Virus record (IMG/VR): IMGVR_UViG_3300022217_000228
Coordinates: 1-64,000 of that record
Length of the DNA: 64,000 bases
Source: a virus
Lineage: Duplodnaviria > Caudoviricetes
Direction: 5' to 3' (one strand)
Shown here: in pieces, positions 4,582 to 49,308 of the stretch
Layout: every line of letters begins with the position of its first letter
Position numbering within the stretch: position 1 is the first letter of the stretch
Translations under genes and position numbers: made by a program
The notes under the pieces: generated by a model
Databases searched by the model: none
The model's input: only the letters and a program-made list of their open reading frames with translations
Told to the model about the DNA's origin: nothing

Positions 4582-4614
4582 ATATATTTCACATAATCAG
4601 TAGTTGGTGTCAAG
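4582..4614 (+). other. attI-like cassette entry site A
   Basis: ATATATTTCACA-9 nt-GTTGGTGTCAAG directly before the first + strand cassette; same 12-mer at 49297-49308. Confidence 0.55.
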
Positions 4615-4647
4615 TTTTTGAACTTTTAATTTGGAGGAAATTTTACT

Positions 4648-4956
4648 ATGTGGAGATTATTGGAAGTCGGTGAAGTTCGTCAGAGAGATGATGAATATAT
4701 ACTCAATGCGAATCCGTGGGAACCTATTGGGTCAATCATCGGAATACCGTTTAAAGATGGTGACAACCCGGTGCGCCGTAAAATTTCGGATAATTCGGAG
4801 GTTCAAAAACCAACCGCTAACATCGACTATACGGCGGTGCTTAAAAAGGAACTGAATCAATGGATTAATTCAGCGCCATCAGTTGTTGCCGAGAAAGATA
4901 TTCATCAATTTGCAGCGCACCTCAATGCCGTGATAAACAAACGGCACTGCACATAG
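4648..4956 (+). CDS. Cassette-borne hypothetical protein, translated through its attC
   Basis: GGAGG RBS; PTANIDYTAV is encoded by the hairpin left arm. Confidence 0.7.
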   Translation: MWRLLEVGEVRQRDDEYILNANPWEPIGSIIGIPFKDGDNPVRRKISDNSEVQKPTANIDYTAVLKKELNQWINSAPSVVAEKDIHQFAAHLNAVINKRHCT

Positions 4957-4973
4957 TCGAGAACCGTTGTGCG
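4814..4973 (+). other. attC-like site
   Basis: CCGCTAAC-ATCGACTATACGGCGGTGC ... GCACTGCACATAGTCGA-GAACC-GTTGTGCG. Confidence 0.8.
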
Positions 4974-5004
4974 AAATGTTTTTTTGAGAGTATAGGAGTT
5001 TGCC

Positions 5005-5235
5005 ATGACACTAAAAGAAGCATTTGATTTTTTGCAACAGAGGCATCGTGTTGTAGAAACCGAAAGCGATACCGAATCAAAATCATGGCAAGCTCTGAAG
5101 TCAGCGGTATTCGCTCAACAGCACTTAACAGGCGATAAAAACGAGCCGGAGGACATTACGCCCTGTGAACATGAGTGGAGGGCGGCGTGTACTCAGGCGA
5201 TTTGTAGGAAGTGTGGAGAAATATCAGATGATTAA
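5005..5235 (+). CDS. Cassette-borne hypothetical protein with Cys-rich C-terminus inside the attC loop
   Basis: AGGAG RBS; CEHEW...CRKCGE lies in the loop. Confidence 0.7.
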   Translation: MTLKEAFDFLQQRHRVVETESDTESKSWQALKSAVFAQQHLTGDKNEPEDITPCEHEWRAACTQAICRKCGEISDD

Positions 5236-5273
5236 CGACGGCGTAACGTCTTTTATCGCCGAACCGTTGGCCA
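5121..5273 (+). other. attC-like site
   Basis: CACTTAAC-AGGCGATAAAAACG ... CGTCTTTTATCGCC-GAACC-GTTGGCCA; same family as 63827-63992. Confidence 0.8.
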
Positions 5274-5277
5274 TAAT

Positions 5278-6048
5278 ATGAAAACACTTACAGCAGGACC
5301 ATTTTTATCAGAATTCGGATGGCTTATATGCTGCTGGATACCAGCCATCCGCAGATATAGCCGAAAGTTTGACGAGACTACAGTTGTATGCAGAGCAGCA
5401 CATGATTATTTGGTGGAGGATTTCGCTGGTGGTATTATACATCATGATAAAAAAGGGTTGCCAGATAGGTGGCTTTTGAATGGCAAGGAAACTCATATTC
5501 ATAAGCTTACTAAAAGGATGCTCGTTGGGGCCACTATCGTAGAGCCCACACAAAAAGTGTGCACCCAATGGAAACGTGAGTATTTTAAGTACGGTAAGAA
5601 ATATGAGGAATGCGCATATGATTTGGTTATCCATGCCCGGGCGTGCACGAAGTACGGTCAAAGATCGTGGAATTATCCGAAGCCACGATACAGAAAAGTG
5701 CTTGAAGCCCTGAAACCACAGAGAGTATGCTGCATAGGAACCGAAGCCAACTATATTGAAGGCACCGAGGACAAGAGAAACATACCATTAAAAGAACTAT
5801 GCGACATCCTGGCAAGCAGCAAAGTGCTGTTGTCGCCATCGAGCGGTCCTGCCCACCTTGCCTCTCTCTGTGGTTGTCCTCACGTAGTTATGACCGATAA
5901 CAAGTATCAGAAGTCGATCGGTGGGACGAATAGAGATAGATATAAGCGATTGTGGAATCCATTCCATACGAAGTGTAAAGTACTCGATAAAGATAACTGG
6001 CAGCCCCCTGTAAAAAAAGTTGTTAAAACTTTGGAGAAATTCTTATGA
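5278..6048 (+). CDS. GT9 (heptosyltransferase)-like glycosyltransferase
   Basis: LKELCDILASSKVLLSPSSGPAHLASLCGCPHVV matches the GT9 C-terminal motif. Confidence 0.7.
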   Translation: MKTLTAGPFLSEFGWLICCWIPAIRRYSRKFDETTVVCRAAHDYLVEDFAGGIIHHDKKGLPDRWLLNGKETHIHKLTKRMLVGATIVEPTQKVCTQWKREYFKYGKKYEECAYDLVIHARACTKYGQRSWNYPKPRYRKVLEALKPQRVCCIGTEANYIEGTEDKRNIPLKELCDILASSKVLLSPSSGPAHLASLCGCPHVVMTDNKYQKSIGGTNRDRYKRLWNPFHTKCKVLDKDNWQPPVKKVVKTLEKFL

Positions 6049-6281
6049 AAAGGTTACCAAGAGCAGATAAAAACGCCTTATTTAAATTAATAAGCGAATT
6101 AATGTCATGTGGGTTTAGAGGGTCAGCACAACGTGTTGTTGATGAAAACATTGATGAATATATAAGAGCGCAAATAAATGGTAATGAGTGGAAGTTCAAG
6201 TGTCCAAGATGTGGATGTAGATTTGCAAACGAAATAAGTAGTAAGTACTATTGTTATAATTGTAATGCTGAAATGCCATAG
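6045..6281 (+). CDS. Zn-ribbon hypothetical protein
   Basis: CPRC...CYNC. Confidence 0.65.
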   Translation: MKRLPRADKNALFKLISELMSCGFRGSAQRVVDENIDEYIRAQINGNEWKFKCPRCGCRFANEISSKYYCYNCNAEMP

Positions 6282-6317
6282 TTATGAAAATAACCTTCTG
6301 CTGTCAACACAATTATT

Positions 6318-6872
6318 ATGAGTGAATACCGCTTAATAAGTGACAAGCTGGTTAAAGCAAGCTTAATCACACTGAATTATCAATTTATTCCAACACTTAC
6401 TCATAACAGTATCTGGAATTTTGACATGAGTTTGCCGAATAGCCCACAAGTTGAATGTGCAAAACTTCTTCTAAGGCATGGTAGAAACTGGGGTAAGCTT
6501 AAATATTGCAGATATGCAGAGGATAGACGACATAGATACCGATGTGGTATCCATAAATGGACTGAAAAAGCCATTAAAGAACACATATTAGGCTCTCGGT
6601 ATGACATACTCATGAGTATAAAGAAGCGTGGATTTAGTAAAAAACTGAACGCAAAGCAGCCGATCACAGTGTTAATAGCTCCATTTTGGGCAACACGGTT
6701 TAATTTTAATGAAGAATGGCTTAACGGCCCAGAGATTTATCACGGTGGACGTCGATGTGCAGCTCTATACGCACTAGGGCATAAAACCGTACCGGTTCTG
6801 TGGGCTAAAGATAAACATCCTGGATCGTGCAAGGGTGGGAAATTTGAACAGAAGGTGCTGAGGTTTATATGA
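6318..6872 (+). CDS. ParB/sulfiredoxin-like domain protein
   Basis: EIYHGGRRCAALYALGHKTVPV resembles the ParB-N motif. Confidence 0.45.
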   Translation: MSEYRLISDKLVKASLITLNYQFIPTLTHNSIWNFDMSLPNSPQVECAKLLLRHGRNWGKLKYCRYAEDRRHRYRCGIHKWTEKAIKEHILGSRYDILMSIKKRGFSKKLNAKQPITVLIAPFWATRFNFNEEWLNGPEIYHGGRRCAALYALGHKTVPVLWAKDKHPGSCKGGKFEQKVLRFI

Positions 6873-7120
6873 CATCATATCAGAAATTAAAGAAACGTAT
6901 AGAGTGGTTAGAAGATATATGCGATAGATACGCTTGTTCTATTAATAATGCAAAAAATAAAGTTTGTGAAAATCCTAGTGTAATATTTGCTTCAACTATG
7001 TCTATTGGTTCTATTCTTCGTACTCAAAAATTGGAAAAAGATCCATATAAATTAGTAGAGATTATATGTAGTATTCCAATACGCCATCAACTTTTTTGTA
7101 ATAGAAAAAATAATGATTGA
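6869..7120 (+). CDS. Hypothetical protein
   Basis: Start/stop overlaps with both neighbours. Confidence 0.6.
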   Translation: MTSYQKLKKRIEWLEDICDRYACSINNAKNKVCENPSVIFASTMSIGSILRTQKLEKDPYKLVEIICSIPIRHQLFCNRKNND

Positions 7121-7871
7121 AGTCAGCGTAATAATCCCAGTATATAACTACGCCAAATATCTTACCGATGCTGTTCTAAGTGTTTCACGTGAAACACTTA
7201 GCGTGCAAATAATAATAGTGAATGATTGCAGTACCGACAATACCGATGACGTTGTTACAGAGTTATGTAGGCCGTTTAAGCTGCCTGAAGTCCGTATAAA
7301 ATATATAAAGCTCGAACACAACGGTGGAGTATCAGCAGCAAGAAACAGAGGACTCATCGAAAGTATCGGTGAATACATTACTTTTCTCGATGCCGATGAT
7401 ATGAGAGTGCCAGGATCTCTCGAACTTCAAAGAAAATTCCTCGATGAGCATAAAAAGCATGATGTCGTATGGGGACAAGCGCTTGAAATACGTGGAGATA
7501 TAGGCTACAACAAAGCAGTTAATAAGATAAGATCATTGAGGATCCATCCATCAGAAGTTAATCCGCAGACAGTAATGTATAGACGCAGTGTATTTGAACG
7601 GTTCGGCGGATGGTATGAGATGCTGCGTTCCGGGGAAGATAAAGAAATGAGTATGCGTCTTGGCATTCATCCCGAATCTCCATTCAAACTGGTTAAAGCC
7701 AAGAAGTTAAAATCACCGATAGCATTCTACCGCAAACACCCGCTCGAAAAGCACAAGCTTAGAAAAGCCGATTCGGATTGGAAAAAAGAGACGAAACGAA
7801 TACAAAAAGAACGAATTAAACAACTAAAACGTGAAGGAGTAACACGAGAAAATACTCCGTTTCCGATATGA
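7113..7871 (+). CDS. Family 2 glycosyltransferase
   Basis: VSVIIPVYN, IIVNDCSTD, GVSAARNRG, FLDADD, GED. Confidence 0.95.
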   Translation: MIEVSVIIPVYNYAKYLTDAVLSVSRETLSVQIIIVNDCSTDNTDDVVTELCRPFKLPEVRIKYIKLEHNGGVSAARNRGLIESIGEYITFLDADDMRVPGSLELQRKFLDEHKKHDVVWGQALEIRGDIGYNKAVNKIRSLRIHPSEVNPQTVMYRRSVFERFGGWYEMLRSGEDKEMSMRLGIHPESPFKLVKAKKLKSPIAFYRKHPLEKHKLRKADSDWKKETKRIQKERIKQLKREGVTRENTPFPI

Positions 7872-8704
7872 AAATACATAAGATGGGATTCGATATAGTT
7901 CACGGGTGTCAACTTAGGTGCGTGGGATGTCCTATATCTACATTAAAACCTAAAATTAGATATGTTTCTATTACTAATTTTTATAAATGTCTTATAAATC
8001 TTGATGTCAGTGAAATATTCAAATTAAGGCTTTATAATTATGGCGAACCATTATTGCACCCAGAGTTATATGAGATTTTAAGAGCTATCGCAGTTCAATC
8101 ATGGAAAGTTAAAAATGTTGAAATAACAACAAATGGACAGTATTGGAATACAGAAAGATTTGTAGAGGCATTTAGGCTTAATGTTGTTACTCAACTGTAT
8201 GTATCATGTGATGGCGATGCAACTCCGAAAGAATACGAACGCTTGCGCCCTCCGGCCAAATGGAAAAAGCTGATTGATTTTTTAAAGGAAATGAAAAGAT
8301 TGCGAGATGAAGTATGCCCTGGCATGTTTCTTGGAACACGTACTATCTGTACCGATGAAAAAGCTCAAAAGCGTTGGAAAAAACTGTTACGCCCATTGGG
8401 ATATACCACTGAATTCAGACCATGGGGAACACGTGCCGATGCAATAGAACAGCCCTGGGGAAAGGTTAAAGTACCTAAAGGAATATGCACGTATCTAACG
8501 AAAGAAAAGGGTAGAAGGCTATATGTGGATTATGACGGCACTGTAGTGCCATGCTGTGTTCATCCACGCGCTGGAGTATTAGGTAATTTACTTGAAAATA
8601 AATACAGTGAAATACTCGAAGGAAAACCACGGAAAAAGTTTATTTCAACCATGAAAAAAGGAAGAAAACATATTCCAGCTTGTGTAGGATGTCAGGAGAA
8701 ATAG
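7868..8704 (+). CDS. Radical SAM protein with SPASM/twitch domain, paralog 1
   Basis: CQLRCVGC, YNYGEPLLHP, VDYDGTVVPCC, CVGC. Confidence 0.92.
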   Translation: MKIHKMGFDIVHGCQLRCVGCPISTLKPKIRYVSITNFYKCLINLDVSEIFKLRLYNYGEPLLHPELYEILRAIAVQSWKVKNVEITTNGQYWNTERFVEAFRLNVVTQLYVSCDGDATPKEYERLRPPAKWKKLIDFLKEMKRLRDEVCPGMFLGTRTICTDEKAQKRWKKLLRPLGYTTEFRPWGTRADAIEQPWGKVKVPKGICTYLTKEKGRRLYVDYDGTVVPCCVHPRAGVLGNLLENKYSEILEGKPRKKFISTMKKGRKHIPACVGCQEK

Positions 8705-9607
8705 ATGATAGTAGCCGGAGTACAGACAGGGCAAATAAGGGGTGGGTCCGCAAGAATCAGATACTATACGTTCATGAAGCACCTCAAATGCGATAAAACT
8801 GATGACTTGGAAAAGGCAGATGTTGTCTATTTTCAAAAGAAATCTTCCAAAGATATTATCAAATTAGCGCGAGAGTTAAAATCCAAAGGGAAGAAAATAG
8901 TCTATGATTGTGACGACGGCGATGGAGATAGAGACAGGAAAGACAGAAACGATCCTGCAATGTTCAAGATTGCCGATGCGATCACTACCGATACAGATGC
9001 ACGTGCAAAACAGTTTCGAAAGAAAACAAATACTCCTGTGTATGTAGTACAGGATTGTATTGATTACGATATAGACCCTACTGATCATATAGAAATAAAG
9101 CCTACAATAGAAACGATCGGTACTTTTGGGACGCATAAGGTTCTTGAAGCTACCTTTAATATGATAAAGCATATTCCTCGCTGTAAAAATCAATATTACA
9201 TAACTGATAGAAATATAAAGAAATACGATAAACATGGCTGGAGGTTAATCCATTGGGGCTTAATTACATTTGTGGATAACCTTAAACTGTTTGACCTGTG
9301 TATTTTGTTGCATCCTAAAGACAAAGTTGGGAATCTAAAGTCAAACAATAGGCTACTTGTATGTATGGCTCTCGGTATACCAACAATTGTTTCAGATACT
9401 GCTGCTTATTCAAAAACAATGTGTCTTGTTAATATATATGGTTGGGATATAAAGATAAAAAAAGCAATTGATTTGATATCTGACTATGAAACAAGAAAAT
9501 ATTACTCTATAAGAATGAGTCAATTTGCTTGGGGAAGATATTCGCCTGCAGAATCAGCAAGACAACTCGAACAAGTATTCAGGAGACTATATGATTCAAG
9601 TCTTTAA
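8705..9607 (+). CDS. GT-B (GT4-like) glycosyltransferase
   Basis: ADVVYFQK, KIVYDCDD, KSNNRLLVCMALGIPTIVS. Confidence 0.7.
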   Translation: MIVAGVQTGQIRGGSARIRYYTFMKHLKCDKTDDLEKADVVYFQKKSSKDIIKLARELKSKGKKIVYDCDDGDGDRDRKDRNDPAMFKIADAITTDTDARAKQFRKKTNTPVYVVQDCIDYDIDPTDHIEIKPTIETIGTFGTHKVLEATFNMIKHIPRCKNQYYITDRNIKKYDKHGWRLIHWGLITFVDNLKLFDLCILLHPKDKVGNLKSNNRLLVCMALGIPTIVSDTAAYSKTMCLVNIYGWDIKIKKAIDLISDYETRKYYSIRMSQFAWGRYSPAESARQLEQVFRRLYDSSL

Positions 9608-10685
9608 ACCTAGTTTAAGAACAGCGAAAATAATGCCTGAAATAGAAAAGGCATTGGAAAGCGGTTGGATTGGATTAGGGCCAAAAGTTGCTGAATTCGA
9701 GAAAGAAATAGAGAAATATATTGGTGGGGGAGTGTATTGTTGCGCTTTGAATAGCTGCACCTCTGCTCTTCATTTGGCTGTGAAGGCACTCAATTTACCA
9801 CCTAAATCTCGAATATTAACCACCCCTATTACCTTCATATCTACAAATCATGCGATTTTATATGAAGGACATGAGCCTGTTTTTTGTGACGTAGAACCTC
9901 GAACCGGCAATATAAATGCTGTAAGTGTTGATAAGGCCATCTCTTATTATAAGCCAGATGCGATTATGGTCGTTCACATTGGCGGTTATCCCTGTGATAT
10001 GGAGGCTATAAACACTATCGCGGCAGGCGCACGTATTCCAATTATAGAAGACTGCGCTCATGCATTTGGGGCGAGATATGAAGGCTGGGCGTTGGTAGGG
10101 AATAGCCAGAATACCTGCTGCTTTTCATTTCATGCTGTTAAGAATTTGCCGGTCGGTGATGGCGGAGCAATTGTTTCCAAAGATAAAAACCTTATAGAAT
10201 GGTGTAAAAAACAACGATGGCTCGGTATAGATAAAGATACTATTAGCAGAAGCCATAATGGCTACTCGTGGGAATACGATGTTGAAGAGCTCGGGTATAA
10301 GTATCATTTATCTGATATTGCGGCGATAATAGGACTTGAACAAATAAAACATATCGAGGCTGATAATTTTCTAAGAGAAGCGTTTGCAAGTGAATATGAA
10401 TTTAATATGCCTGATATGGGACCAGAATATTCAAATAAGCGCCTAAGTAGCTATCATTTCTATCCGATGTTTTTCGAAAAAAGGAATGAAGTGTATGAAA
10501 AATTGATAAAAGCTGAAATCTATCCCGGAATGCACTATAAGATGAACAATAAATATAAAATTTATGAAGAATGCAAATGTATGGACTTGAGCGGTGCGGA
10601 AGAGTACGAACGAACGGAATTGACGTTGCCATTGCATTTGGATTTAAGGGTTGAGGATATAAGAAAGATTGTTGAAACCATATGA
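9525..10685 (+). CDS. DegT/DnrJ/EryC1/StrS-family PLP sugar aminotransferase (likely start 9591)
   Basis: SGWIGLGPKVAEFE, NSCTSALHLA, IEDCAHAFG, FSFHAVKNL (PLP lysine), GYKYHLSD. Confidence 0.95.
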   Translation: MLGEDIRLQNQQDNSNKYSGDYMIQVFKPSLRTAKIMPEIEKALESGWIGLGPKVAEFEKEIEKYIGGGVYCCALNSCTSALHLAVKALNLPPKSRILTTPITFISTNHAILYEGHEPVFCDVEPRTGNINAVSVDKAISYYKPDAIMVVHIGGYPCDMEAINTIAAGARIPIIEDCAHAFGARYEGWALVGNSQNTCCFSFHAVKNLPVGDGGAIVSKDKNLIEWCKKQRWLGIDKDTISRSHNGYSWEYDVEELGYKYHLSDIAAIIGLEQIKHIEADNFLREAFASEYEFNMPDMGPEYSNKRLSSYHFYPMFFEKRNEVYEKLIKAEIYPGMHYKMNNKYKIYEECKCMDLSGAEEYERTELTLPLHLDLRVEDIRKIVETI

Positions 10686-11605: not shown

Positions 11606-12174
11606 GTAAAAAATTTTGGACTGATACGAAATTAAGCGATATTCAAAGTAACATAAAACATCGACAGGGAGTACGCGATTTTCAAACCTCCTATAGTCAT
11701 TGCAGAACAACGATTATAAGAGATTACATCGAAAAATTAATATCTCAAGGCAAAATTAAGCCATCCTTTACACTTATAGATTTGTTCTGCGGAGATGCAA
11801 TAATAATAAGGTTGCTGAAAGAACATTTTAAGAGAGCAACAGTAATTGGTGTGGATATAAACGAGATAAGAGGGCATGAAGGAGCAATTGGCGCTGGTGT
11901 GGAAATAAAATATCAGTATGTTCATGATTATATAAAGGATAGAAAAGAACCAGTAGATATTGTTTTAATGATGAATACCTACAGGAATATCAAAGCTTCT
12001 GGAATGACAAAACAGGAATTTGGGAAAATAAATAAATGGCTGTTTAAATATGTAGCTCATCCAATAGTTACTACATCAGATATAAAAAAGGCAAAGAAAT
12101 ACGGTTTCAACCCTCTTATAATCGGTAAGGGTGAGGGATCTTCAAAGATGGTCGATTTGAAAGGACAGGGATGA
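11602..12174 (+). CDS. SAM-dependent methyltransferase
   Basis: LIDLFCGD...VIGVDIN. Confidence 0.75.
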   Translation: MSKKFWTDTKLSDIQSNIKHRQGVRDFQTSYSHCRTTIIRDYIEKLISQGKIKPSFTLIDLFCGDAIIIRLLKEHFKRATVIGVDINEIRGHEGAIGAGVEIKYQYVHDYIKDRKEPVDIVLMMNTYRNIKASGMTKQEFGKINKWLFKYVAHPIVTTSDIKKAKKYGFNPLIIGKGEGSSKMVDLKGQG

Positions 12175-14884: not shown

Positions 14885-14891
14885 TAATATA

Positions 14892-19227: not shown

Positions 19228-19266
19228 TATGTCTAAAATGCTCGAAATAGATATCAAGGTAAAGTA

Positions 19267-20113: not shown

Positions 20114-20125
20114 AAGGAGACTGTA

Positions 20126-33364: not shown

Positions 33365-36300
33365 TAAGTACCTCCAATATGTATTACTGATAAATTGACA
33401 GCATGCACTGTAATTGTCGGTGTCCCCGCATCTGTTGTTCTTATGGCAACTTCTATTGTTGAATTATCAGCCAAATCTAGTATCGCAGAAGATCCAACGT
33501 GCTCTTCTTCACTTGCAAACTTATTTTCCACATGGCATTGACCTGCTGCATCTGCCGCTCCGGATCCGTTTATTTCAATACCTATTTCAACATGATCATT
33601 CGCTGCATCGTTTTCAAAGCAGCACGAATAGCTTACAAAAAACATACCTGGCTCTGTTACTGTTAACTCACCGCTTCCGTCATGTGTAACATTATGTAAA
33701 TTTCCATCGTTCATATCAGCATCAGAAATATTATACCATGTGTTCTGCACTGCATTGACTTGGACCCATGCGATGTGATTGCCATAACACGACCCGAAAG
33801 GAAGGCCGGCACCACCGACGAACTTCATGTCTCCATCTGATTCTATGTTGACATAATTCGTGGGGGCACCTGCCGAACTGTCGCCAATTCTCACCGATCC
33901 ATCTGCAAACATATCAAGAAAAGTATCGGCTTGTGAATATATACCTATCGCAGTATCTCTAAATGAAACCTTGGAATCAGTATCTAATAAGACAACACCT
34001 GCGCCGACAACCTTCGGATTAACAATTAAATTCGTTCCATTATAATGGATTTTTATATCTTGACCAGCACCTAAAACGAGACCGTAAGAATCAGAATCGA
34101 TTTGCACATCACCAAACAGGCGAGTAATTGTAGTTGATACGTTTCCTATAGCCGTTGTGTTGCTTCCTAAACCATCGGCACCATACCCTATTACAACTTC
34201 ATTTGTTTCGCCGTCACCGGCTGGATATGTATAAGACCCTAGAAATACCGAATCTTCACCCGAAGTATTATTTCCTCCACCAACTAGATACCTACCAGCC
34301 TGATAACCTATGCCGACATTGTGATCAGTATCTACTATCGAATACAATGCCCTACCACCTATGGCAATGTTTGCAGTGCCACTTTCTAATTCGCGCAAGG
34401 CAGTTATGCCTATTCCAAAGTTGAAACTACCATCATCGCAATCATAAAGAGCCGATCTACCTATTGCAACATTATACTCGCCGGTAGTGTTACTATATAA
34501 ACCGGCATAACCGATTGCTATGTTTGAACTTCCAGTCGTATTTGTAACCAGTGAGTCCCTACCGATTGCACAGCAGTAATTAGCTTCTGTTAAGTTAGAT
34601 AGCGCCTGGGATCCAATAGCTAAGTTATTATAACCTTTAGTTACTGAAAGTAATGCCCTGTATCCTACACCTAAATTATAAGACGAATGAGAAGTCGCTG
34701 TTGCAGTGCTCCCAGTTGTAAAATTCCCAGCATCTTCTCCAAGAAATAAATTTCTTCCATCAGGAATTGCACCGCCGCCAGTTGGGTGATGGAAATCGTG
34801 TAAAAACCTGTTACCGCCTTTGTAGATTACTCCTGTAACGGACGATGTGGTACTTACAGTATATAACGAAAGATTAAGTGAAATCCCTGAATCCGGAACG
34901 TGAGTTAATGTCACATCCTGGTCGTCTCCTAAGTAGATTACAGAGGCATCAGCAAGATAAAGGTCGGAAAATTCTAGAGAAGCTGTCCCTAATGCTGCTC
35001 CATCGGAAGCACTTGGGGATATTGTATCGGTAAACTTTACAGTTTGATCTGAATCTATCAGTACACTTACTGCACCACCAGAAAAAAGCCTGATAGTATC
35101 AGGCCATGTCGAGTCGGCGTCACCATACAACCAGATACTACCACCACTATTATAATCATCTTTTGCATTTAGAATTAATGCTTCACGGTTTGCAACAACA
35201 TAGTTCAATATCGTAGATTGACAGTTTCCCTCAAGTGTTATCACGGGGCTTGAAGACGTATCTGTAATATGAAGCAATGTGTCTGGACTTATCTCATTTA
35301 TCCCAACCCCATCGATTGTAATCCTCGCCATTTCCGTTCCGTTAAGGGTAGTTGTATTGGCCGCAGCATGAAACCTGATATTTGTAAATGCATTCATAAA
35401 TGTTGAACCACCACCGATAAACAAAGCACTCTGGGTAAGTTGTGACGAACCAACAAACCACGTGAGAGGTTCCTCTGCATTCGTATAATGTGGACTTCCT
35501 GCTCGAAAGTATTTTGATGTTAAATTTGTTCTAGTGTTCAATTGGTCGTCGGCACCAACTATAAGCCCAATAGTGCCATCACAAACATCTAACTTACCAA
35601 GTGGAGTAGCTGTAGCTATCCCTACATCACCATTGTCGAACTGGAATTCTCCAGCTCCAACCAGCTGAGAATCAAATACAAAGTTTGTTCCGTTATAACG
35701 TATTTCAGCGTCTTGTCCTGCGCCAAAAATAGCACCATATGCATCAGAATCTATCTGAATATCATAATTTGAATGGGCAGTACCAGCATTGTCAATATAA
35801 AATCTTGTAGCTGGTAGTGCGGTTGTATTTGCTGCCGTAGCAAGTATAATCTGTGTTGCCGCATTTAAACCTTCGTTCCCACCGGTTCCTATTGTAATAC
35901 TATTTGCCGCTACTGTACAATGACCCGCAATGATTCCCATTCCAGGCTCATCAGTATCATATTGAGGCATGCCTATGTGACTACGTTTAGTAACATTATC
36001 TGTTCGAGTAATAGCATTTTCATCAGCACCTATATAAAGAGTTTGCTCTCCATCAGAAACATCCAATGTGCCTAATGGGGTTGCTGTTGATACCGAAACA
36101 TTATCAACGAATAGCGTGTTTGTGTTGTAATTATACGTAAAAGCTGCTTCTGCACCCATTGCTCCAGCAAGATTATATTGAACTTCCATGTCGGCACCTG
36201 CTACTGCGGCTACTCCAGGAGCTATCCATCCTAAATTACCTGCACCATCAGTATAAATTATCTCGTTAACAGCACCATCAGCAGCGGGGAGTTGCCATAA

Positions 36301-36483: not shown

Positions 36484-36489
36484 AATAGT

Positions 36490-38763: not shown

Positions 38764-38764
38764 A

Positions 38765-41985: not shown

Positions 41986-42592
41986 CTATATCATCTCCCT
42001 TTTTTGGCCGCCCTCTTCTCCCAGGCGATTTTTGAGATACTTCCTGTTTTTCAATTTCTTCCAGCTTCTTTAAATCAGCAGCAATTCTGCGTTCGATTTC
42101 TTCTTTAGGACTAAGTTCTGTTTTAAACGGTTCATCTTTTATTTTTTCAATCTCTTCAGCTAATTTTGAATCAACAACAACGAGTTCACGATGTGTTGAA
42201 ATGAAATGTCTGTTCCAGTTGTCAGGATCATCCCAGATATCGGCTTCGATTTCACCGGTAATAGATTGCCTAAAAAGCAGCGCACGTGCTCCTGGCCGTG
42301 CCTGCCATTCTGTTTTTCCAGTACTAACATCAGTCTTCTCATATGCTTCTACATCTCTAAGGCCATGAATTCTTATGTTAAAACAAACGCCTTCGCTATC
42401 AATTTGCGGTATTGCTCTGCCTTCATAACGAACCTTTATGAACTTTTCGCCTTTCCGCCTGAGATTTTCAATGTTTTTTAGGTGTTCTCTGTCCTGTTGA
42501 GATTTAAAAAAATCCGCTAACTGATTCATGTTAATCCTTTCTTTTGGTGGATACAAAGACAGGGGTATTAACCCCCTGTCTTCACAATTCAA
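41870..42592 (-). CDS. Hypothetical protein after the capsid gene (true start probably near 42530)
   Basis: AAAGG RBS before MNQLAD; RRGRPKK tail. Confidence 0.6.
   Translation of the reverse strand: MNCEDRGLIPLSLYPPKERINMNQLADFFKSQQDREHLKNIENLRRKGEKFIKVRYEGRAIPQIDSEGVCFNIRIHGLRDVEAYEKTDVSTGKTEWQARPGARALLFRQSITGEIEADIWDDPDNWNRHFISTHRELVVVDSKLAEEIEKIKDEPFKTELSPKEEIERRIAADLKKLEEIEKQEVSQKSPGRRGRPKKGDDIDGVDESTSDVDSAGVPRMEPGGKSKRNPATVQSGAPAS
42556..42582 (-). terminator. Intrinsic terminator after the capsid gene
   Basis: AAGACAGGGG/CCCCTGTCTT stem followed by TTTGT. Confidence 0.65.
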
Positions 42593-42604
42593 TATTATGC
42601 AGTA

Positions 42605-43894
42605 CTATGCATTCTCTACACGGCCAAGCACAACCAGTACTGAGCCGAAATACTCACGCTGCGCACCGGTAGGATCAACAGGTGTGGTATCAAACTGTAG
42701 ATGCTGATATCCACGATTACCTGCATAACCGACACCATTACGCACATTGTAATCCCAATCCTGAGAAATCATATGCATCTTCTCAGGTTCCATCAGATAC
42801 AATGAACCTGCACCATGAAGGATAGATGCATCACGTACCAATGGATTCTCAAGTTGTCTCTGGTCGTTTGCAGTAGGCCACATATAACCAGCTTCCAGGC
42901 CAAAAGGCTCTGCAGTACCACTCGGGATAAGAGTAGCGAGTCTGTCGTCACGAACAATGTAAATTGTTGCACCGGCAGCGCTTTCCCATTTCCCTTGTAT
43001 ACCATACCAGTTCTGTACTTTATGATCTTTGATATCATCAACACGAGTATAACGACTTCCAAGCGTATCGATGAACCGAGGATTGGTAAATCGTGCCGCT
43101 TGAAGCTGTGATATCGTTAGAACAAAAGCCTGATTTCCTTCGATTGATAACGGCCATAGCCGACGCAGAAATGCAAACCGAACAAGATCATCCATTACCC
43201 TACCGGAAAGCATTTGTGCTGCAGTCTGCGGAAATGTTCCGGTTCCACCTGAAGCAGTATCCATTGCACTAACAATTCGATTGGTATACGTTGCCCAGTT
43301 GGGATGGAATTGCGGTTGATGGAAAATGTCTGTTGCGCCATTGGCAACATAGCAATGACGGTTCCATTGGGCAGGACATACGTTTTGAGTCGAGCCTGCC
43401 ATGAGATTCCAACCGTATGTTTCTATCAATCCCATGTGGATTTCAAGATCTTCCTCTGCCGCTGCATGAGGCGCCAAATCCTTAGCATGGGTTTCATAAA
43501 GCTTATAGAATTCTGCATCAAGCTTATGCTCACCATAACCAGGCTTGTCCTGAAATACGATACGATAGTTATTACGATACAGTGTACCATTTTTCACTAT
43601 CGGTGGTATTTCAGTTCCCATTGCAACTGCATTACCGCGGAGAATATTAGCATCGACTTCCATCTTAAGACCGACGCGTACATTATTTGCGCCGCCGATC
43701 TCTTCCGGAGCCAAGCGAACAATAACGTCGCTCGGCATGGATAGCTCCTGCCGTTTATAGATTATCCTTTCACCGGTAATATTTGCATATATCGACTTTG
43801 GAATAGCTCTCCTGCGGAGAGTATTGCTGAACTTCCTTACAACAAGACTTCCGCCAGAAAGAGTATTCAAACTAGTATAATTTCTTACACCCAT
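42605..43894 (-). CDS. Major capsid protein (N4 gp56/DUF4043-like)
   Basis: 429 aa after the scaffold gene; GGANNVRVGL...ILRGNAVAMGTE resembles this family; AAGGAG RBS and downstream terminator. Confidence 0.75.
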   Translation of the reverse strand: MGVRNYTSLNTLSGGSLVVRKFSNTLRRRAIPKSIYANITGERIIYKRQELSMPSDVIVRLAPEEIGGANNVRVGLKMEVDANILRGNAVAMGTEIPPIVKNGTLYRNNYRIVFQDKPGYGEHKLDAEFYKLYETHAKDLAPHAAAEEDLEIHMGLIETYGWNLMAGSTQNVCPAQWNRHCYVANGATDIFHQPQFHPNWATYTNRIVSAMDTASGGTGTFPQTAAQMLSGRVMDDLVRFAFLRRLWPLSIEGNQAFVLTISQLQAARFTNPRFIDTLGSRYTRVDDIKDHKVQNWYGIQGKWESAAGATIYIVRDDRLATLIPSGTAEPFGLEAGYMWPTANDQRQLENPLVRDASILHGAGSLYLMEPEKMHMISQDWDYNVRNGVGYAGNRGYQHLQFDTTPVDPTGAQREYFGSVLVVLGRVENA

Positions 43895-43953
43895 ATGTTA
43901 CTCCTTTTCAAGTTAAGTTTTGTTGCGATTCTACTTCGCTCTACACCTGAATA

Positions 43954-45537
43954 TCAGGCAACTTGCTTCCAATGATCTTCGACATCAGGAACAGGTAGTT
44001 TGAGTGTTTCACATGCTTTCTTAACGGCGTTAAACATATCCCATCCACGTTTATCGCCATTACGTAACAACCGTTCCATTTTTTCTTCATCAACGGTCAT
44101 ACGCCCTTGTTTTTCACCAAGGATTTCAAGAGCCTGGTCTTCACTCATATCCTGTCCTTCCGGTGGAGCACCAGTGGGAGAAAGGGTAGGAGATGATGTA
44201 TCTCTCTTTTGAATAGATTCATTCAAACTCTGCTGCCCTTGTTTCTCAGCCTCAATGATTTTCATCTCATTTTCAAGCGTACTTAATCCACCTGAGTCTT
44301 TCATATTTTGAAAAGCTGCGCCAAAATCAGGAAAGGTTATTTTGTTGCCACGAAAATCTTTGACAGGAACTCGTCTTCCAGAGCGTGAATCAATTTGTTC
44401 TCCACGTTGTCTCCAGTATACATTCATTAGAATACCGTAGTTTCGAATATCATTACCATTGATTCCGAAATCTGCAGGGTTAATACCTTCCTGCTCACAT
44501 ATTCTAGTAAGTTCGCTGTCATTGGCATTATAAGCACTTACAAGCTTGTTGACCTCATCAAAGTTCTCTGGGTTTCTTCCATACACCCTCCGTGCCATAC
44601 TTATAATAGATGACTCAACATCATTACGATCGTCGGCATAAAGCGGCTTTGAAGTCTTCAGCTCTGGATGTTTAACCTGTAAGTCAGCTAATCCCCTTTC
44701 AGCAGCCTTTTGTTCATGTTCAGCTTTGCGTCTTGCCTCACCCACTTTGGTAGTTTCAGACACGCTCCTTATATTGTCTTCAAGGCTTTTGTACCTTTTT
44801 TCTGCATTTGTTCGATAGTTGGTAAACTCAGTTTTTACACTATCGAGTTCGCCCAACGTTTCTTCAAGTGCATTAACAGTGCCTGAAATTGCTTTCTGAA
44901 GAGGTTCAATTTCATCCCCTTCATAATTGTTAAGCTTAGATACTTGCTCATTAATAGTATCGAGTCGGCTACTAAGCTCAGAGCGTTTTTTAGTACTCAT
45001 AGGTTTTGATTCTATGGTACTCTTAACTTCCTTTGAAGCAGCCCTCAATTCCTGAAGCTCTCTTTGGAGTTCTGGAACTGTTTTGGCTGTGTTTTCAAGT
45101 TCTGCTATACGCTCTTCATATACATGCAATTTTCCTTCAGCACTATTCGCATAACGGCGTGCATGTGCCGTTTGCTTCAGTATTTCAGGAGCGCTTTTGT
45201 AATTACGTATCGATTCATCAAGATCACTTCGTTTTACCTTGCCGAGAGTTGAAAAATCAATGTAATCGTCCTCACTTTCTACCGTTTCAACAGACTGTTG
45301 TGGCTCTTTCTGTGTTACGGTTGGCTCTTCTGTTGGCTCATTGGGGAGAACTTCAGAAGCCGCTTCTTCAGAAATAGACGCATTGCGTATTTCTTCTTCT
45401 TTGAGTTCCTGCTCATGCTGCCACTCCTCGATATTAGCTGTACCCTTGGGGGGTTCATCAGGAAGTTCGGCTAAAGCAGTGTCTCGTTCTTCCTCGTTTT
45501 TAAAAACGAGTTCTTTTGCTTCATCTGGCATCTTCAA
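43954..45537 (-). CDS. Capsid scaffolding-like protein
   Basis: Acidic N-terminus and long coiled coil, between portal and capsid genes. Confidence 0.6.
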   Translation of the reverse strand: MKMPDEAKELVFKNEEERDTALAELPDEPPKGTANIEEWQHEQELKEEEIRNASISEEAASEVLPNEPTEEPTVTQKEPQQSVETVESEDDYIDFSTLGKVKRSDLDESIRNYKSAPEILKQTAHARRYANSAEGKLHVYEERIAELENTAKTVPELQRELQELRAASKEVKSTIESKPMSTKKRSELSSRLDTINEQVSKLNNYEGDEIEPLQKAISGTVNALEETLGELDSVKTEFTNYRTNAEKRYKSLEDNIRSVSETTKVGEARRKAEHEQKAAERGLADLQVKHPELKTSKPLYADDRNDVESSIISMARRVYGRNPENFDEVNKLVSAYNANDSELTRICEQEGINPADFGINGNDIRNYGILMNVYWRQRGEQIDSRSGRRVPVKDFRGNKITFPDFGAAFQNMKDSGGLSTLENEMKIIEAEKQGQQSLNESIQKRDTSSPTLSPTGAPPEGQDMSEDQALEILGEKQGRMTVDEEKMERLLRNGDKRGWDMFNAVKKACETLKLPVPDVEDHWKQVA

Positions 45538-45800
45538 TTGCCTTTCTTGGTTGCAGGTGGCTCCTCTTAAGTAGTTGGCTACTCATAAGGCTGCTTCCCT
45601 ATTAACAATCATTTATATAAAACACGCCACTACTTCTTTTTTGGAGAAGGTAGCGGCATAAGAAAAATCAAATCTAAGGGTGGATCCGGTTCGCTGTCAT
45701 ACGTGTTCTCCTCACATCCGCCGAGAGTTTTATAACGATTATCCAGATTTTCCTGAATAGGAGTAGGTTCGATTTTTAATTTTTCCATAATGGCACCCTT

Positions 45801-47957
45801 CTATCCCGGTATTGCAGGAGATTCATTTCCAAGTCTGTTTATATTCTGAACTCGCTGTTCTCTTTCCGTAGGCATTGATTGTTCTTGTGCAGGTCCGACG
45901 CTCATTGCTGCAGGTGTTGCTTGTTCTGGAATACTTGGCTGTTGTGCCCCTCCCTGCATTTTGGCCTGCATATTCTGCATCATTCCTTGAAGCTGCATCT
46001 GCATCGATTTCGCTTCCATTCCCTGTGCTTTTAATCCCTCGATTTGGGTGAACAGCGACAGTATATCACGCATTTCTTTAAGTGTTCGCATGCGCTCAAT
46101 CTTCAACTGCTCTTCCGGTGTTCTTTCTATGGTACTGAGAAGATCGTATGTGAGCATCTGGATTTCCTCTTTAAACAATTCCGGATGAGCAGATAGCATC
46201 TTGGTTGTATCGAATAGTTCAAGCCTTTTCTCCATGCGTTTTGTCGGAGAAGATTTTGAAAGCCGAACAACAACTCTTGCGCGTGGAAGATCGCTTATTG
46301 AGTTTATATAAACCTTTTCCCTGCCTCCATTTTGATTCGTTCTAAATGCAGGAACATTGAATTCAACCTCTCCGCTACCGCCGGCCATAGGGATTTTACG
46401 ATACAAATCTTTGTACGAGATTTGAGCTTGGTTGTACCATGCTTCTGCCTTATCCATAAGGAATTGCTGCCAAGCACCGTATAGGCGTAGTGTTCCGAGC
46501 TTTGTGATTTCATGGCGCAATTCAAGAAGAATGCCAGATTGATCCCTTTCGGCAGCCCCTTCGAGTGCAGGAGTAACAGGCGTTACTCTATCAAGCAGGT
46601 CGATTATTTCATTAACCTGTCTAAAAATGTGCTCCGGAACTTGTCCAACTGGAAATAATGCAGCTACATTATCAGGAGGGCCATCAACGGCATGAACGTA
46701 ATCAGGACGGGTTTTATTCTGCATTATTTTTTGAACACCCTGTTTGCCGCCAACTTTGTTTTGATCAACAAAGGTTGCTCCTGAAGCGGCAGCAGCAATA
46801 ACGTCATCCATCTTTGATTGTCGATAATTAAGTGTTCTGTTTAAATCGAGGCCGTATTCGAATACGCCTTTTCTTATACCAAACATTTTGTTGGAAGAGA
46901 ATTCGAATAGACCTATCATCCCAGGTTGTGTAGGATGTTTTCCTCTGACGAAAACCAAATCAGGTGCAATTCCGGTTAGATCAGGTGATATAATACCATA
47001 ATAAAGAATATTGTCTTCATACGGAAATTCTCTTATATCTGACCAGGTTATACCCGTTTTTTCCTTAAAATCACGTACTTGATCTTCCGTTACTTTTAAT
47101 GGAAATGCAAACCACTCGCCAGTTTGCATTTTTGCATGTAGGCGAGTGGTTCTTAGCTTTTCAAGCCAACGGTATTCGGTAACGAGATAGCGTGATCCAC
47201 TTTTTGTCGGCAGGTTTTCCCATGCCCGTACATCATCGCCTTCATTGGCGTAATCATAGCCTATCGCAAAATCACGTTCGGCGAGTTTTCTTACACTATC
47301 ATCGCGGCAATCAAGCTCTTCTATCATCATTTCCGGAGTGAGGTATCCGTCTATCATGGCCTTACGCCAGTTTCGTATCTCGTTGTCCTGCCAAAAAGGA
47401 TCCGAAAGAACGGTTCCATCCGTGCAGTGCTTGAAACTTATTGCACCTGTTCGTCTGATATCATAATCAAGACACATCATTTGTACACCGGAATGTAGTA
47501 ACCCCGACATATTTGACTGATTATCTGCTGTTTCATACTTGTACTGATCTTTATCGGCGAAATACCAATGCTTTATAGAGTCTATGAGCGTGTTTTCGTC
47601 TATATCCAATGCTTTAAAATCGAAATCGAAGCGTTCTGACATCAATGAGCCACTTAGGGTTTCCATTTTTTGTTTTAATATATTTATACTTGTTGGGTGA
47701 CGATCGGCGTTTAGTAGTTGGTTGCGTTCTGTTTCAGGCCACATTCCTCCGTTAATATCCATGAATGCCTGCATTGCATCATAATATCGTTCTCTTGAAT
47801 CTTGATGACATGCAAGCCAGCGTGTGTGGAGATCTTCGACATGCCGAACGAATTCCCCATCAGATGAGCGCATCCGCATGGAGGTTTTAGTGTTTATGTT
47901 AGCTTTTTCTATCGGGAATTCTATGTCGGAAGTGAGATGTAGTGGATACTTGTTCAT
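45801..47957 (-). CDS. Portal protein (P22/podovirus-like)
   Basis: 718 aa; FMDINGGMW, SINILKQK, Q-rich C-terminal extension; first gene of the head module. Confidence 0.8.
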   Translation of the reverse strand: MNKYPLHLTSDIEFPIEKANINTKTSMRMRSSDGEFVRHVEDLHTRWLACHQDSRERYYDAMQAFMDINGGMWPETERNQLLNADRHPTSINILKQKMETLSGSLMSERFDFDFKALDIDENTLIDSIKHWYFADKDQYKYETADNQSNMSGLLHSGVQMMCLDYDIRRTGAISFKHCTDGTVLSDPFWQDNEIRNWRKAMIDGYLTPEMMIEELDCRDDSVRKLAERDFAIGYDYANEGDDVRAWENLPTKSGSRYLVTEYRWLEKLRTTRLHAKMQTGEWFAFPLKVTEDQVRDFKEKTGITWSDIREFPYEDNILYYGIISPDLTGIAPDLVFVRGKHPTQPGMIGLFEFSSNKMFGIRKGVFEYGLDLNRTLNYRQSKMDDVIAAAASGATFVDQNKVGGKQGVQKIMQNKTRPDYVHAVDGPPDNVAALFPVGQVPEHIFRQVNEIIDLLDRVTPVTPALEGAAERDQSGILLELRHEITKLGTLRLYGAWQQFLMDKAEAWYNQAQISYKDLYRKIPMAGGSGEVEFNVPAFRTNQNGGREKVYINSISDLPRARVVVRLSKSSPTKRMEKRLELFDTTKMLSAHPELFKEEIQMLTYDLLSTIERTPEEQLKIERMRTLKEMRDILSLFTQIEGLKAQGMEAKSMQMQLQGMMQNMQAKMQGGAQQPSIPEQATPAAMSVGPAQEQSMPTEREQRVQNINRLGNESPAIPG

Positions 47958-48232
47958 GTCATATCTTCCATTATATATTCTACTGATTTATTTTCATCCA
48001 TTAATCGTACAGATCTTACGCCTTCTGAAACAACGGCGACACTATCAAAATTAAAGTGTTGTGTTATTGGCAATAATTTAGCAGTTATACCACCATTTTT
48101 ATTTATATCAACCTGTACCCATCTGTTGCATTTTCTGTCACCACAATGCACCCAAAACCTCTTTTGGTGTGGATCATATGCTATAAGTATCTTGGGATAT
48201 TGGTGGTTCGGACAATTAATTCGCACTTTCAT
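47954..48232 (-). CDS. Small Zn-binding protein upstream of portal
   Basis: CPNH...HCGDRKC. Confidence 0.6.
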   Translation of the reverse strand: MKVRINCPNHQYPKILIAYDPHQKRFWVHCGDRKCNRWVQVDINKNGGITAKLLPITQHFNFDSVAVVSEGVRSVRLMDENKSVEYIMEDMT

Positions 48233-48328
48233 CTACTATAATAATAGTACTTAAGCGCAAAAATAAATAGTGACGCTACTCCACAGGTAGCATGATTTTA
48301 AAAACTAACTATGTAAACGGTAGGAAAA

Positions 48329-48994
48329 CTAGGTGCCGGAAACAATTCTCCAGGTGCGTTGATTATCCCATTTTTGGATAATGCAAGCTACCTGTTTTCT
48401 GCTGCTTCCGCCTTGGGGGATTGGCCAACATGGGTATTCCCAATCCAATACGTGGCCGAATTTTTCGGGGATTTGCACTTTAATCTTTTTGAAGTCTACC
48501 CACATTAATTTATTAACGTAATCAGACGGGATGCCGAGGGCTATCGCTTCGGTTTCATCGTTATATCCCCATCTGTTTGAATCGAATTTTGATTCTCTTA
48601 CCCATCTGCCGCTTTTGGACCACCACCAGAATCCTTGAAAATTGAAACCTATCCAGTGACAGAACTTTGCTCTCTTTGCCCCGCGCCTTAGTGTAAACCA
48701 TGTGGCCATATCAGTATCTTTTCTTCTCGCTACTTTCTCGCGGGAGAAAAACATGTTCTTTTCCCTGAGGTATTCTATATAATCATCAAGTTGTTTCTTG
48801 GTGATACCATCAGCATGGATGCACATATCGATGTCGTTGTCATGGCCTATAAAATCGTTTTCGCGTATGATACCGAGAAGAAGGCCGAAATTAACGAAGA
48901 GTTTATCTTTTATACCAGCTTTTTCTGCGCATTCGTAGCATATGGACAGATCCTCTGTAGCGTACAATTTTCTCTGATAATCAAAAAAAGCCAT
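48329..48994 (-). CDS. LicD-family nucleotidyltransferase-fold protein, paralog 1
   Basis: FVNFGLLLGIIRENDFIGHDNDIDM; KVQIPE...LDWEY. Confidence 0.85.
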   Translation of the reverse strand: MAFFDYQRKLYATEDLSICYECAEKAGIKDKLFVNFGLLLGIIRENDFIGHDNDIDMCIHADGITKKQLDDYIEYLREKNMFFSREKVARRKDTDMATWFTLRRGAKRAKFCHWIGFNFQGFWWWSKSGRWVRESKFDSNRWGYNDETEAIALGIPSDYVNKLMWVDFKKIKVQIPEKFGHVLDWEYPCWPIPQGGSSRKQVACIIQKWDNQRTWRIVSGT

Positions 48995-49005
48995 TAATGT
49001 CCTTT

Positions 49006-49136
49006 TTCACAACGGTCCGCGAATATGTGCAGTGCTGGAGCCATCCGGCTTATTTACGCGCCTTTGGGCTGGTGCCGAAACCCGCATAATCCAACTTAGT
49101 AGCACAACCAGCATTGCATATATTCGCTGTTGTATG
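49006..49136 (-). other. attC-like site of a solitary cassette
   Basis: CATACAAC-AGCGAATATATGCAATGCTGG ... CCAGCACTGCACATATTCGC-GGACC-GTTGTGAA. Confidence 0.85.
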
Positions 49137-49283
49137 TTGAAGGAGATTTCCTCCATAGTGTAAAAGCGATATGTTAATTATTTTTCCCGGACGGAACGGC
49201 CTTATCCGATGTTCCGTATATTTGATAATTAACTCTCGGATGCGATATCGCATTACAACCATAAAAGAAATCTCCTTTTGCAT
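49050..49283 (-). CDS. Cassette-borne hypothetical protein (likely start 49262)
   Basis: AAGGAG RBS just after the entry core; HTTANI is encoded by the hairpin arm. Confidence 0.6.
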   Translation of the reverse strand: MQKEISFMVVMRYRIRELIIKYTEHRIRPFRPGKIINISLLHYGGNLLQHTTANICNAGCATKLDYAGFGTSPKARK

Positions 49284-49308
49284 ACAACTATATTAGTGTG
49301 AAATATAT
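49277..49308 (-). other. attI-like cassette entry site B
   Basis: ATATATTTCACA-8 nt-GTTGTATGCAAA. Confidence 0.55.

Follow-up and report, generated by a model that had tools for sequence, protein, structure and literature searches.

Integrons are bacterial gene-capture devices with one attI site beside one IntI gene; attI1 of the classical integrons comprises L and R boxes together with the elements DR1 and DR2. Several other systems lie close by: dif, a site for the resolution of chromosome dimers that has no cassette arrays; the integration of the CTX phage, for which XerCD acts at a folded single strand; and the PeSL elements of T4-type phages, where an early promoter and a stem-loop serve to shuffle small ORFs via homologous recombination. 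Short orphan attC clusters are already known from phages. In virulent phages these take the form of CALINs (attC clusters without an integrase), amongst whose cassettes methyltransferase cargo also occurs (Qi et al. 2023, PMC9892861), and integron integrases additionally use attG sites, with a consensus of only GWT (bioRxiv 10.1101/2022.09.11.507474).

Comparing these systems with the cassette blocks found in a 64,000-nucleotide stretch of phage DNA (‘the window’), we see that the motif described below shares with attI its place at an array head, its nature as a partner that is double-stranded and forms no hairpin, an L box with AAC or AAT at its end, a 3–5 nt spacer, an R box GTTRnnn with a G^TT crossover (^ marking the point of exchange), a constant left flank followed by a variable first cassette and, in related arrays, a position next to a recombinase gene. 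It differs in that the neighbouring enzyme of those related arrays is XerA-like and without the IntI-specific insertion, that the gene encoding it points the same way as the cassettes, the site abutting the gene's stop codon, and that three copies of the site occur in this genome with no recombinase. Phage CALINs (PMC9892861) have the same co-oriented cassettes, attC-type hairpins and lack of an integrase; here, however, there are ~21 sites in three blocks, each with the same non-hairpin head motif, and the hairpin/head family is tied to a Xer-like enzyme. As with attG insertions, there are cassettes outside the main array, in operons where read-through can express them, but 11–12 nt are common to the two outlying sites and the array head, and both outlying sites resemble recombinase-adjacent heads. 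Likeness to Xer/dif lies in a core site where a short central region separates two inverted arms and, as for CTX, in one partner that would be a folded single strand; in contrast to dif, the enzyme here stands at the head of arrays composed of mobile units of one gene each. PeSL-like, too, are the repeated intergenic elements flanking small accessory ORFs in a plastic region of the phage, yet these heads have neither a stem-loop nor a consistent promoter, and their junctions show the offset complementarity of site-specific insertion. In our reading the motif is most likely a docking site for new cassettes, of the attI type (L box, spacer, R box).

The motif and the blocks that it heads

The phage genome is complete at 73.2 kb (IMG/VR record of 73,346 nt), and a scan of the whole record for the exact 11-mer TATATTTCACA returns three copies against 0.12 expected, starting at 4583 (+), 49307 (−) and 64,908 (−). 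At the first two the match extends to the 12-mer ATATATTTCACA (4582-4593, + and 49308-49297, −), for which five matches with up to one mismatch are found versus 1.33 expected—a count attained in none of 100 shuffles. All three exact copies are block heads, lying 8–9 nt ahead of the TA^GTTG at which the first cassette starts, and the 73-kb scan gave no copy of TATATTTCACA away from cassettes or at other operon heads.

A sequence-only reading of the window had quoted strings at 4582 (+) and 49308 (−), both of which are present as written. It described the two sites as intergenic, free of hairpins and 8–9 nt from the first crossover G, a description borne out by the flanking ORFs, by the folding given below and by the crossover positions (4603 at site A, 49288 at site B; 9 and 8 nt past the 12-mer). 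Its forecast of a third copy beyond 64000, heading the main array, was correct: the copy lies at 64,908-64,898 (−) of the genome. The scan of the full record was also its suggestion, with the proviso that a motif missing from the main-array head, or common without cassettes, would speak against the idea; neither is seen in the 73 kb, the three exact copies all falling at cassette blocks. The features are as follows.

4582..4609 (+): head A; motif ATATATTTCACA at 4582-4593, L-box-like CATAAT at 4592-4597, spacer CAGTA at 4598-4602, crossover G at 4603, R box GTTGGTG at 4603-4609
4604..4966 (+): satellite cassette A1; ORF 4648..4956, 102 aa, no family
4967..5266 (+): satellite cassette A2; ORF 5005..5235, 76 aa
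49282..49308 (−): head B; motif at 49308-49297, CTAAT at 49296-49292, spacer ATA, crossover G at 49288, R box GTTGTAT at 49288-49282
49013..49287 (−): solo cassette B; ORF 49050..49283, 77 aa
57341..64000 (−): main cassette array within the window, running past its edge to head C
59628..59652 (−): degenerate head-like copy TATATTTCATAATGTCTTACACC, without GTT, within an 876-bp cassette
64,908-64,885 of the genome (1908-1885 of L003) (−): head C, GTATATTTCACATAACGTCTA^GTTGTAGGCAAT, heading the main array

Sites A and B are located inside co-directional operons, A between ORF 4296..4568 and the A1 ORF, B between ORF 49348..50049 and the ORF of cassette B. An attC-like hairpin with its last G at 4966 forms the end of A1 (duplex −24.1 kcal/mol, folding end to end), its right arm being 85–89% like that of cassette B; A2 ends likewise (last G 5266, duplex −22.5 kcal/mol), and 12 nt past this final G, at 5278, is the ATG of a 256-aa core gene. 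Cassette B has an attC-like hairpin with final G 49013 (duplex −28.0 kcal/mol, fold z −2.64) and a start complementary to its own inverse core; next after it, from 48994, comes a LicD-like core gene of 221 aa. Between G 64,523 and G 57,341 the main array has 18 attC-like sites, the last of which is followed by a cassette-like unit; cassettes there number ~19, and attC-like sites ~21 over all three blocks. The degenerate head-like copy falls at the 3' end of ORF 59618..60034. An ungapped hairpin finder being too insensitive, attC-like sites were located with a duplex-energy finder, and only those at or below −18 kcal/mol were used because a −13 cut-off gives ~70 matches in shuffled genomes.

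Heads A, B and C are alike only in the motif and the crossover, over a shared stretch of 11–14 nt. Duplication of a segment comprising head and cassette was considered and rejected: blastn between the pairs recovers just the 11–14 nt motif, along with a 28-nt hairpin arm for A and B, and the cassette proteins behind the heads are mutually unrelated; since the heads share the motif alone, they are not segmental duplicates. The predicted empty sites would read CACATAATCAGTA^GTTGGCC (A) and CACACTAATATA^GTTGTGAAAAAGG (B). The closest relatives found, G001 and G002 (71% portal identity), have neither motif nor arrays, so that an empty-site comparison is impossible. One DNA run, probably of the source sample and kept as contigs only, shows neither variants nor joints that skip a cassette; no RNA run is listed. 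Wider searches turned up little: TATATTTCACA-N8/9-TAGTTG has 14 single matches in IMG/VR, an estimated chance-level number, with no array at any; TATATTTCACATAAY-N4-TAGTTG in metagenome contigs gives two copies of one unrelated AT-rich sequence; TTCATCATAACTTAGTTR matches IMG/VR once, within a coding region and with no array; and GGCGCACRTTTCGCAAACGTT has no match there. A megablast of window positions 42000-50000 against deposited phages likewise produced no match.

Related heads beside a Xer-like recombinase

The same hairpin family is present in other viral and metagenome-bin contigs, in nine of which a co-oriented tyrosine recombinase gene ends 0–60 nt ahead of the first cassette. For seven of the nine, the array begins 0–16 nt past the stop codon of a XerA-like recombinase and the head reads (T)TTCATCATAAC(T/A)TA^GTT; the other two arrays lie beside a more distant relative of this enzyme. 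Most of the seven contigs carry phage-type genes or have phage-type sizes. Between recombinase-linked loci, head identity is 65–95% in the 20 nt left of the crossover and 15–42% to its right, except for one pair at 0.68 with a common cassette leader. A layout of (A/C)TAA(C/T)-N3 or N5-GTT(G/A) runs through the three heads here and the nine recombinase-adjacent heads, so that the ACATAAT-5 nt-GTT singled out as attI-like in the sequence-only reading recurs, as a layout, directly behind recombinase genes in nine contigs. We find in it the parts of a simple attI site (L box, short spacer, R box GTTRRRY and G^TT), the cut point within A-G-T-T being finer than sequence alone can resolve. Adjacency to the integrase gene of its own element, a further attI feature, is seen in these nine contigs and is lacking in our phage.

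A matrix built solely from the seven recombinase-linked heads ranks heads C, A and B 1st, 3rd and 4th of ~146,700 positions; scores for single heads (14.6–19.5) fall inside the range of best shuffled-genome matches (15.1–19.7), so only the joint ranking is telling. Head B lines up with the recombinase-linked consensus without any shift, and heads A and C need one of 1–2 nt. The part in common with the recombinase-linked heads is TTCA..TAAC..TA^GTT; the TATAT part of the motif is not conserved in the external heads, and as an extension of the three heads in this phage it could have an accessory role of the DR1/DR2 type. Neither G003 nor G006, both recombinase-bearing genomes, has a head beyond that beside its recombinase, and alignment of the recombinase against IMG/VR added only two loci, both ordinary integrases without arrays.

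On TIGR02249 the related recombinase (P0003) reaches 149 bits, below the cut-off of 265 and spread over two stretches; XerA_Arch is its best family, at 202 bits (cut-off 220). It aligns end to end with archaeal XerA (PDB 4A8E, 5HXY)—a further likeness to Xer/dif—and in only two stretches with IntI4 (2A3V), and the additional domain specific to IntI was not detected in it. The enzyme being Xer-like rather than a canonical IntI, we use ‘attI-like’ for a working mode and not for placement in the integron family. No tyrosine recombinase was found in the complete phage genome with PF00589, 3-member or 42-member profiles in six frames; with the genome complete, no such enzyme is available in cis. 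Homology between the 86-aa ORF ahead of head C and a 90-aa ORF preceding head A was considered and dismissed, KNGKR being all that they share (E 0.15).

Folding, junctions and competing explanations

As single strands the three heads give fold z values of +0.21 (A), −0.56 (B) and +0.16 (C), with no attC-type hairpin, as expected of the double-stranded site of an attI; cassette-end sites fold end to end, from AAC to GTT, with z from −1.0 to −4.4. At the start of a cassette, 5.06 of the 7 variable bases match its own inverse core (3.01 when permuted, P<1e-5), compared with 3.11 for the hairpin neighbour (P=0.39). This complementarity to the own inverse core, and not to the hairpin neighbour, is the signature of cassettes that entered as circles. 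Each of the three heads is followed by a cassette with a start of this kind, and the first junction has a fixed left flank and a mobile cassette on its right, as at attI. Judged on these comparisons, the junctions at the heads are true recombination junctions. The match to recombinase-linked heads, the matrix ranking and the absence of folding together make attI-type the best reading of the motif, the fixed double-stranded partner site probably being TATATTTCACA-(T/C)(A/T)AA(T/C)-N3 or N5-TA^GTTG.

Could the motif instead be a promoter, host sigma-70 or phage-specific, one for each block, with cassettes kept wherever they landed behind it? Its TATATT matches the −10 hexamer in five of six positions, site A offers TTAATA-17-TATATT (9/12) and site B TTGAAT-17-TATAGT, and in classical integrons cassettes near resident promoters are expressed (bioRxiv 10.1101/2022.09.11.507474), which we count in favour. 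We nevertheless think this quite improbable: the hexamers stand in differing registers at A and B and are missing at C, where a far better TTGACT-17-TATAAT (11/12) occurs 260 nt upstream, hexamer counts are no higher than in shuffled sequence, and the same-register pairs with 16–18 nt spacing of a Pc-like sigma-70 feature are not seen. A and B moreover sit within co-directional operons, other operon heads and the relatives do without the motif, and TATAT is not the part held in common with recombinase-linked heads. The earlier suggestion of a late promoter doubling as a target finds no support in this pattern of registers. Very little credence, in our view, attaches to the idea that the motif has no role, the outlying cassettes being at attG-like secondary sites or the heads being cassette ends with deleted hairpins. 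It is true that classical integrases use loose GWT sites throughout genomes for insertion, that the array's inverse cores are loosely similar (TTTAC...AAC form) and that a collapsed hairpin would leave AAC-N5-GTT; secondary sites, however, need only ~3 nt, yet the three heads share 11–14 nt and match recombinase-adjacent heads, an extended conservation beyond the bare GWT core of attG. A and B, moreover, read TAAT where every inverse core has AAC, and none of the heads is preceded by a cassette-like unit whose start is complementary.

We also regard it as unlikely that the heads are fossils—inactive relics of a recombinase-attI-array module that has lost its recombinase. The complete genome without a recombinase fits such a history, as does the 86-aa ORF occupying the place of the recombinase gene at head C, its stop in the same CATAA as at L057 and L059; it gives one weak collinear BLASTP match to the recombinase C-terminus (E 0.25). 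Searches with PF00589 and with the 3- and 42-member recombinase profiles nevertheless find no remnant, the 86-aa ORF not being amongst their matches, and the 14 nt (A) and 40 nt (B) between upstream core gene and motif leave no room for one. The retention of 11–14 identical nt in three relics, furthermore, suggests selection or a recent origin.

A probable docking site and a possible enzyme from elsewhere

The attI-type reading, which takes up the earlier proposal of dedicated entry sites, agrees with every sequence test that was run. A XerA-like recombinase would bind the two inverted boxes (L and R) and, at G^TT or directly beside it, exchange strands with the folded hairpin of a circular cassette, thereby placing the cassette just downstream of the motif, where read-through from upstream promoters would express it. 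Since the complete genome encodes no recombinase, the enzyme would need to act in trans, supplied by a co-infecting phage, a prophage or the host; alternatively, the three sites would be leftovers of past activity. We tentatively entertain the possibility that the three attI-type sites, one heading ~19 cassettes and two within core operons, are kept for a XerA-like recombinase acting in trans. On this same tentative reading the phage would hold part of an integron-like platform split between genomes, with a cassette pool common to unrelated phages.

What emerges is that sequence allows us to define where cassettes of a phage-borne system insert, that this site is conserved beside a Xer-like recombinase in several phage-like contigs, and that in one complete phage lacking a recombinase it occurs three times. 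Should the sites be active, phages could hold several entry points for accessory genes whilst relying on a recombinase from elsewhere, which would change the picture of gene flow among co-infecting phages. It would also provide a natural instance in which an enzyme that has no IntI-specific domain recombines a hairpin with a duplex—a case that would bear on how integron integrases evolved from Xer enzymes.

Head sites and the cassettes behind them

Each of the three cassette blocks of this phage is preceded by a 'head', in which the motif is followed by a crossover point (marked ^) before GTT:

Head A, 4582-4593 (+): motif ATATATTTCACA, G of GTTG at 4603; written TTTCACATAAT-CAGTA^GTTG; precedes two satellite cassettes, whose end sites have their G at 4966 and 5266.
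Head B, 49308-49297 (-): motif ATATATTTCACA, G of GTTG at 49288; written TTTCACACTAAT-ATA^GTTG; precedes a solo cassette, whose end site has its G at 49013.
Head C, genome 64,908-64,885 (-): TATATTTCACATAACGTCTA^GTTG; written TTTCACATAAC-GTCTA^GTTG; start point of the first cassette of the main array.

The motif is thus present at both sites where the sequence-only reading had placed it, and the third copy forecast upstream of the main array, past 64000, is head C. A full-genome scan finds the 11-mer TATATTTCACA three times against 0.12 expected, with no copy away from the heads; other one-mismatch copies of the motif all lack TAGTTG, and its TATAT portion is specific to this genome. Duplication of larger segments was considered and rejected, pairwise blastn returning the motif alone (plus a 28-nt hairpin arm for A versus B) and the cassette proteins being unrelated. 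One of these one-mismatch copies (59651) belongs to a fourth, degenerate head-like string, TATATTTCATAATGTCTTACACC, at 59628-59652 (-) (compare head C, TATATTTCACATAACGTCTAGTTG), which has no GTT and sits at the 3' end of ORF 59618..60034, within an unusually long, two-ORF cassette of 876 bp; it may be a relic of an earlier array head.

The main array comprises 18 minus-strand sites from 64,523 to 57,341 (xxxxxAAC, 1-3 nt, an imperfect stem, ~5 nt, G^TTRxxxx), and behind each of them lies a small ORF in the same orientation. Single-strand folds of cassette-end sites pair from AAC to GTT, whereas folding of the 123 nt ending at each head is no better than that of shuffles (z +0.21 for A, -0.56 for B, +0.16 for C). 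When inverse cores, picked on hairpin energy alone, are compared with the seven variable bases after GTT, each matches the start of its own cassette (5.06/7 against 3.01 for permuted pairs, P<1e-5; head C's first cassette included) and not that of the next, its same-hairpin partner (3.11/7, P=0.39). Judged from sequence, this offset complementarity is the trace expected of circular cassettes inserted by crossover at GTT; the left flank of each head would then be the fixed partner of such insertion.

The leader of the first cassette behind head A, GTCAAGTTTTTGAACTTTTAATTTGGAGG (4606-4647, +), is 62-65% identical, ungapped, to first-cassette leaders at loci L056 and L058 of other contigs, most other pairs being 15-50% identical, and leaders resembling CAAGTTTTG recur in the main array; these look like a conserved cassette 5' leader. 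A 787-bp cassette (61253-61968, -) encodes the N-terminal part alone of a C5 cytosine methyltransferase (PF00145, residues 4-80); its ORF has an internal T run and is followed by a second, overlapping ORF (61253..61453), possibly reflecting a frameshift.

Genome setting

The full record spans 73,346 nt, of which the window covers bases 1-64000. The contig of the probable source run breaks at a low-complexity repeat (~65.3-65.5 kb), within an ORF of 75 aa that consists almost entirely of GYGSGDG-type repeats (genome 65,285-65,512, -; 2285-2512 of L003, the stretch holding head C), where many short contigs stack (depth 620 versus 19); from this break and pile-up the contig is recognised as a circular permutation of the record. 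Together with the recurrence of the record's first 40 nt at 137 nt before its end (129/137 identical), this shows a complete genome of ~73.2 kb. It carries a P22-type portal, sugar-modification genes and an AAA_24 protein; megablast with 42000-50000 found no match among deposited phages. Two IMG/VR relatives, G001 and G002, have most core genes in common with it (~40-88% amino-acid identity; portal 71%) and lack the heads, other small ORFs occupying the site-B position. Where the array would be, G001 (IMGVR_UViG_3300029827_000121) has kilobase tracts of GCAnAGGCAnnGTGAAG-form repeats (~5-nt period, 31/36-nt super-period; L010 5100-6300, 15300-15800 and 17700-20000; L011 1-1000).

Recombinase-adjoining heads in other contigs

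Four other IMG/VR contigs contain 21 bases of one hairpin family (CTTCGGGCGGRTGCCT-N4-CGTTG), and two contigs assigned to metagenome bins contain 19 bases of the same family. At least four of the six hold rows of like sites, the largest with at least 13 cassettes, and in three a tyrosine recombinase gene (268-298 aa) lies immediately upstream of the row, co-oriented with it. That of CAIOJS010000371.1, P0003, belongs to a tight clade (48-88% identical, contigs up to 94 kb). The best-fitting family for P0003 is XerA_Arch (202 bits), followed by XerD and XerC. Archaeal XerA structures align with it from end to end, the RHRH/Y residues being kept by eye; the integron-integrase model matches two stretches only, under cut-off, and IntI4 aligns in two pieces. 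P0003 is thus Xer-like and lacks the IntI-specific insertion.

At all six homologue loci examined, small ORFs of the same orientation as the recombinase come after it, together with hairpin sites (L060 having one site only at the cut-off used), with phage genes (RecT, a faint terminase match, Gp3-like) near several. Counting P0003's own locus, the first cassette begins 0-16 nt past the recombinase stop codon in seven of seven, at (T)TTCATCATAAC(T/A)TA^GTT (GCT for GTT in L059). Identity between these loci is 65-95% over the 20 nt left of the crossover and 15-42% to its right (+4 to +43), one pair excepted (0.68, a shared cassette leader). By position and behaviour, the recombinase-adjoining head is the predicted attI of the system. 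At the two loci whose recombinase is more distant, the heads are GTATAAC-AAGTA^GTTG and GTATAAT-AAGAA^GTTG.

The heads of our phage share the (A/C)TAA(C/T) box, the GTT and, between them, a spacer of 3 or 5 nt. TTTCA is shared too, its distance to the crossover being equal or nearly so. When ~146,700 positions on both strands are scored with a weight matrix trained on the seven external heads alone, head C comes 1st, head A 3rd and head B 4th, the single score of each lying inside the range of best matches in shuffled genomes; by our own arithmetic, C(4,3)/C(146,700,3), three pre-fixed positions would by chance all fall in the top four about once in 1e14 trials. The 2nd-ranked match, GGTTATAATAACTTAGCTA (34594-34617, -), lies within a 1039-aa gene with no adjoining cassette, probably by chance.

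No recombinase is available in cis in this phage, a six-frame search with PF00589, P0003 and two custom profiles finding none. An array of at least 12 cassettes at L032 ~9005 (-) (IMGVR_UViG_3300036885_000119) has a similar head, TATATAGATCATCTAATAGCTA^GTTGG, possibly a second orphan; no tyrosine recombinase was found in its 57.9-kb record (74% complete).

Promoter or docking site

Could the motif instead be a promoter of the cassette blocks, sigma-70 type or phage-specific? At head A it can serve as the -10 of TTAATA-17-TATATT; at head B, however, the match (TTGAAT-17-TATAGT) is in a different register, head C gives nothing, and no match count exceeds shuffles. A strong sigma-70-like promoter, TTGACT-17-TATAAT (11/12; L003 2163-2191, genome 65,163-65,191, -), lies 260 nt upstream of head C, ahead of an 86-aa ORF whose stop codon falls in the motif, and heads A and B are within co-directional operons, so that read-through expression requires no promoter at the heads. 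We consider a head promoter, phage-specific or not, unlikely. The -10 upstream of head C ends 7 nt before the ATG of the 86-aa ORF, which runs into that head; this suggests a leaderless transcript reading into the main array.

CALINs are on record from phages, as are a few complete integrons (PMC9892861), and classical integrases also insert cassettes outside attI, at loose GWT sites (bioRxiv 10.1101/2022.09.11.507474); our full-text search found no paper on phage hairpin-cassette arrays headed by Xer-like recombinases. The attI-like reading proposed from the sequence holds up as a description of how the site works, given the true junctions, the absence of a fold, the recombinase-linked heads and the matrix ranks. 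We lean towards the head motif working as an attI-like site, one that is outside the canonical IntI integron family.
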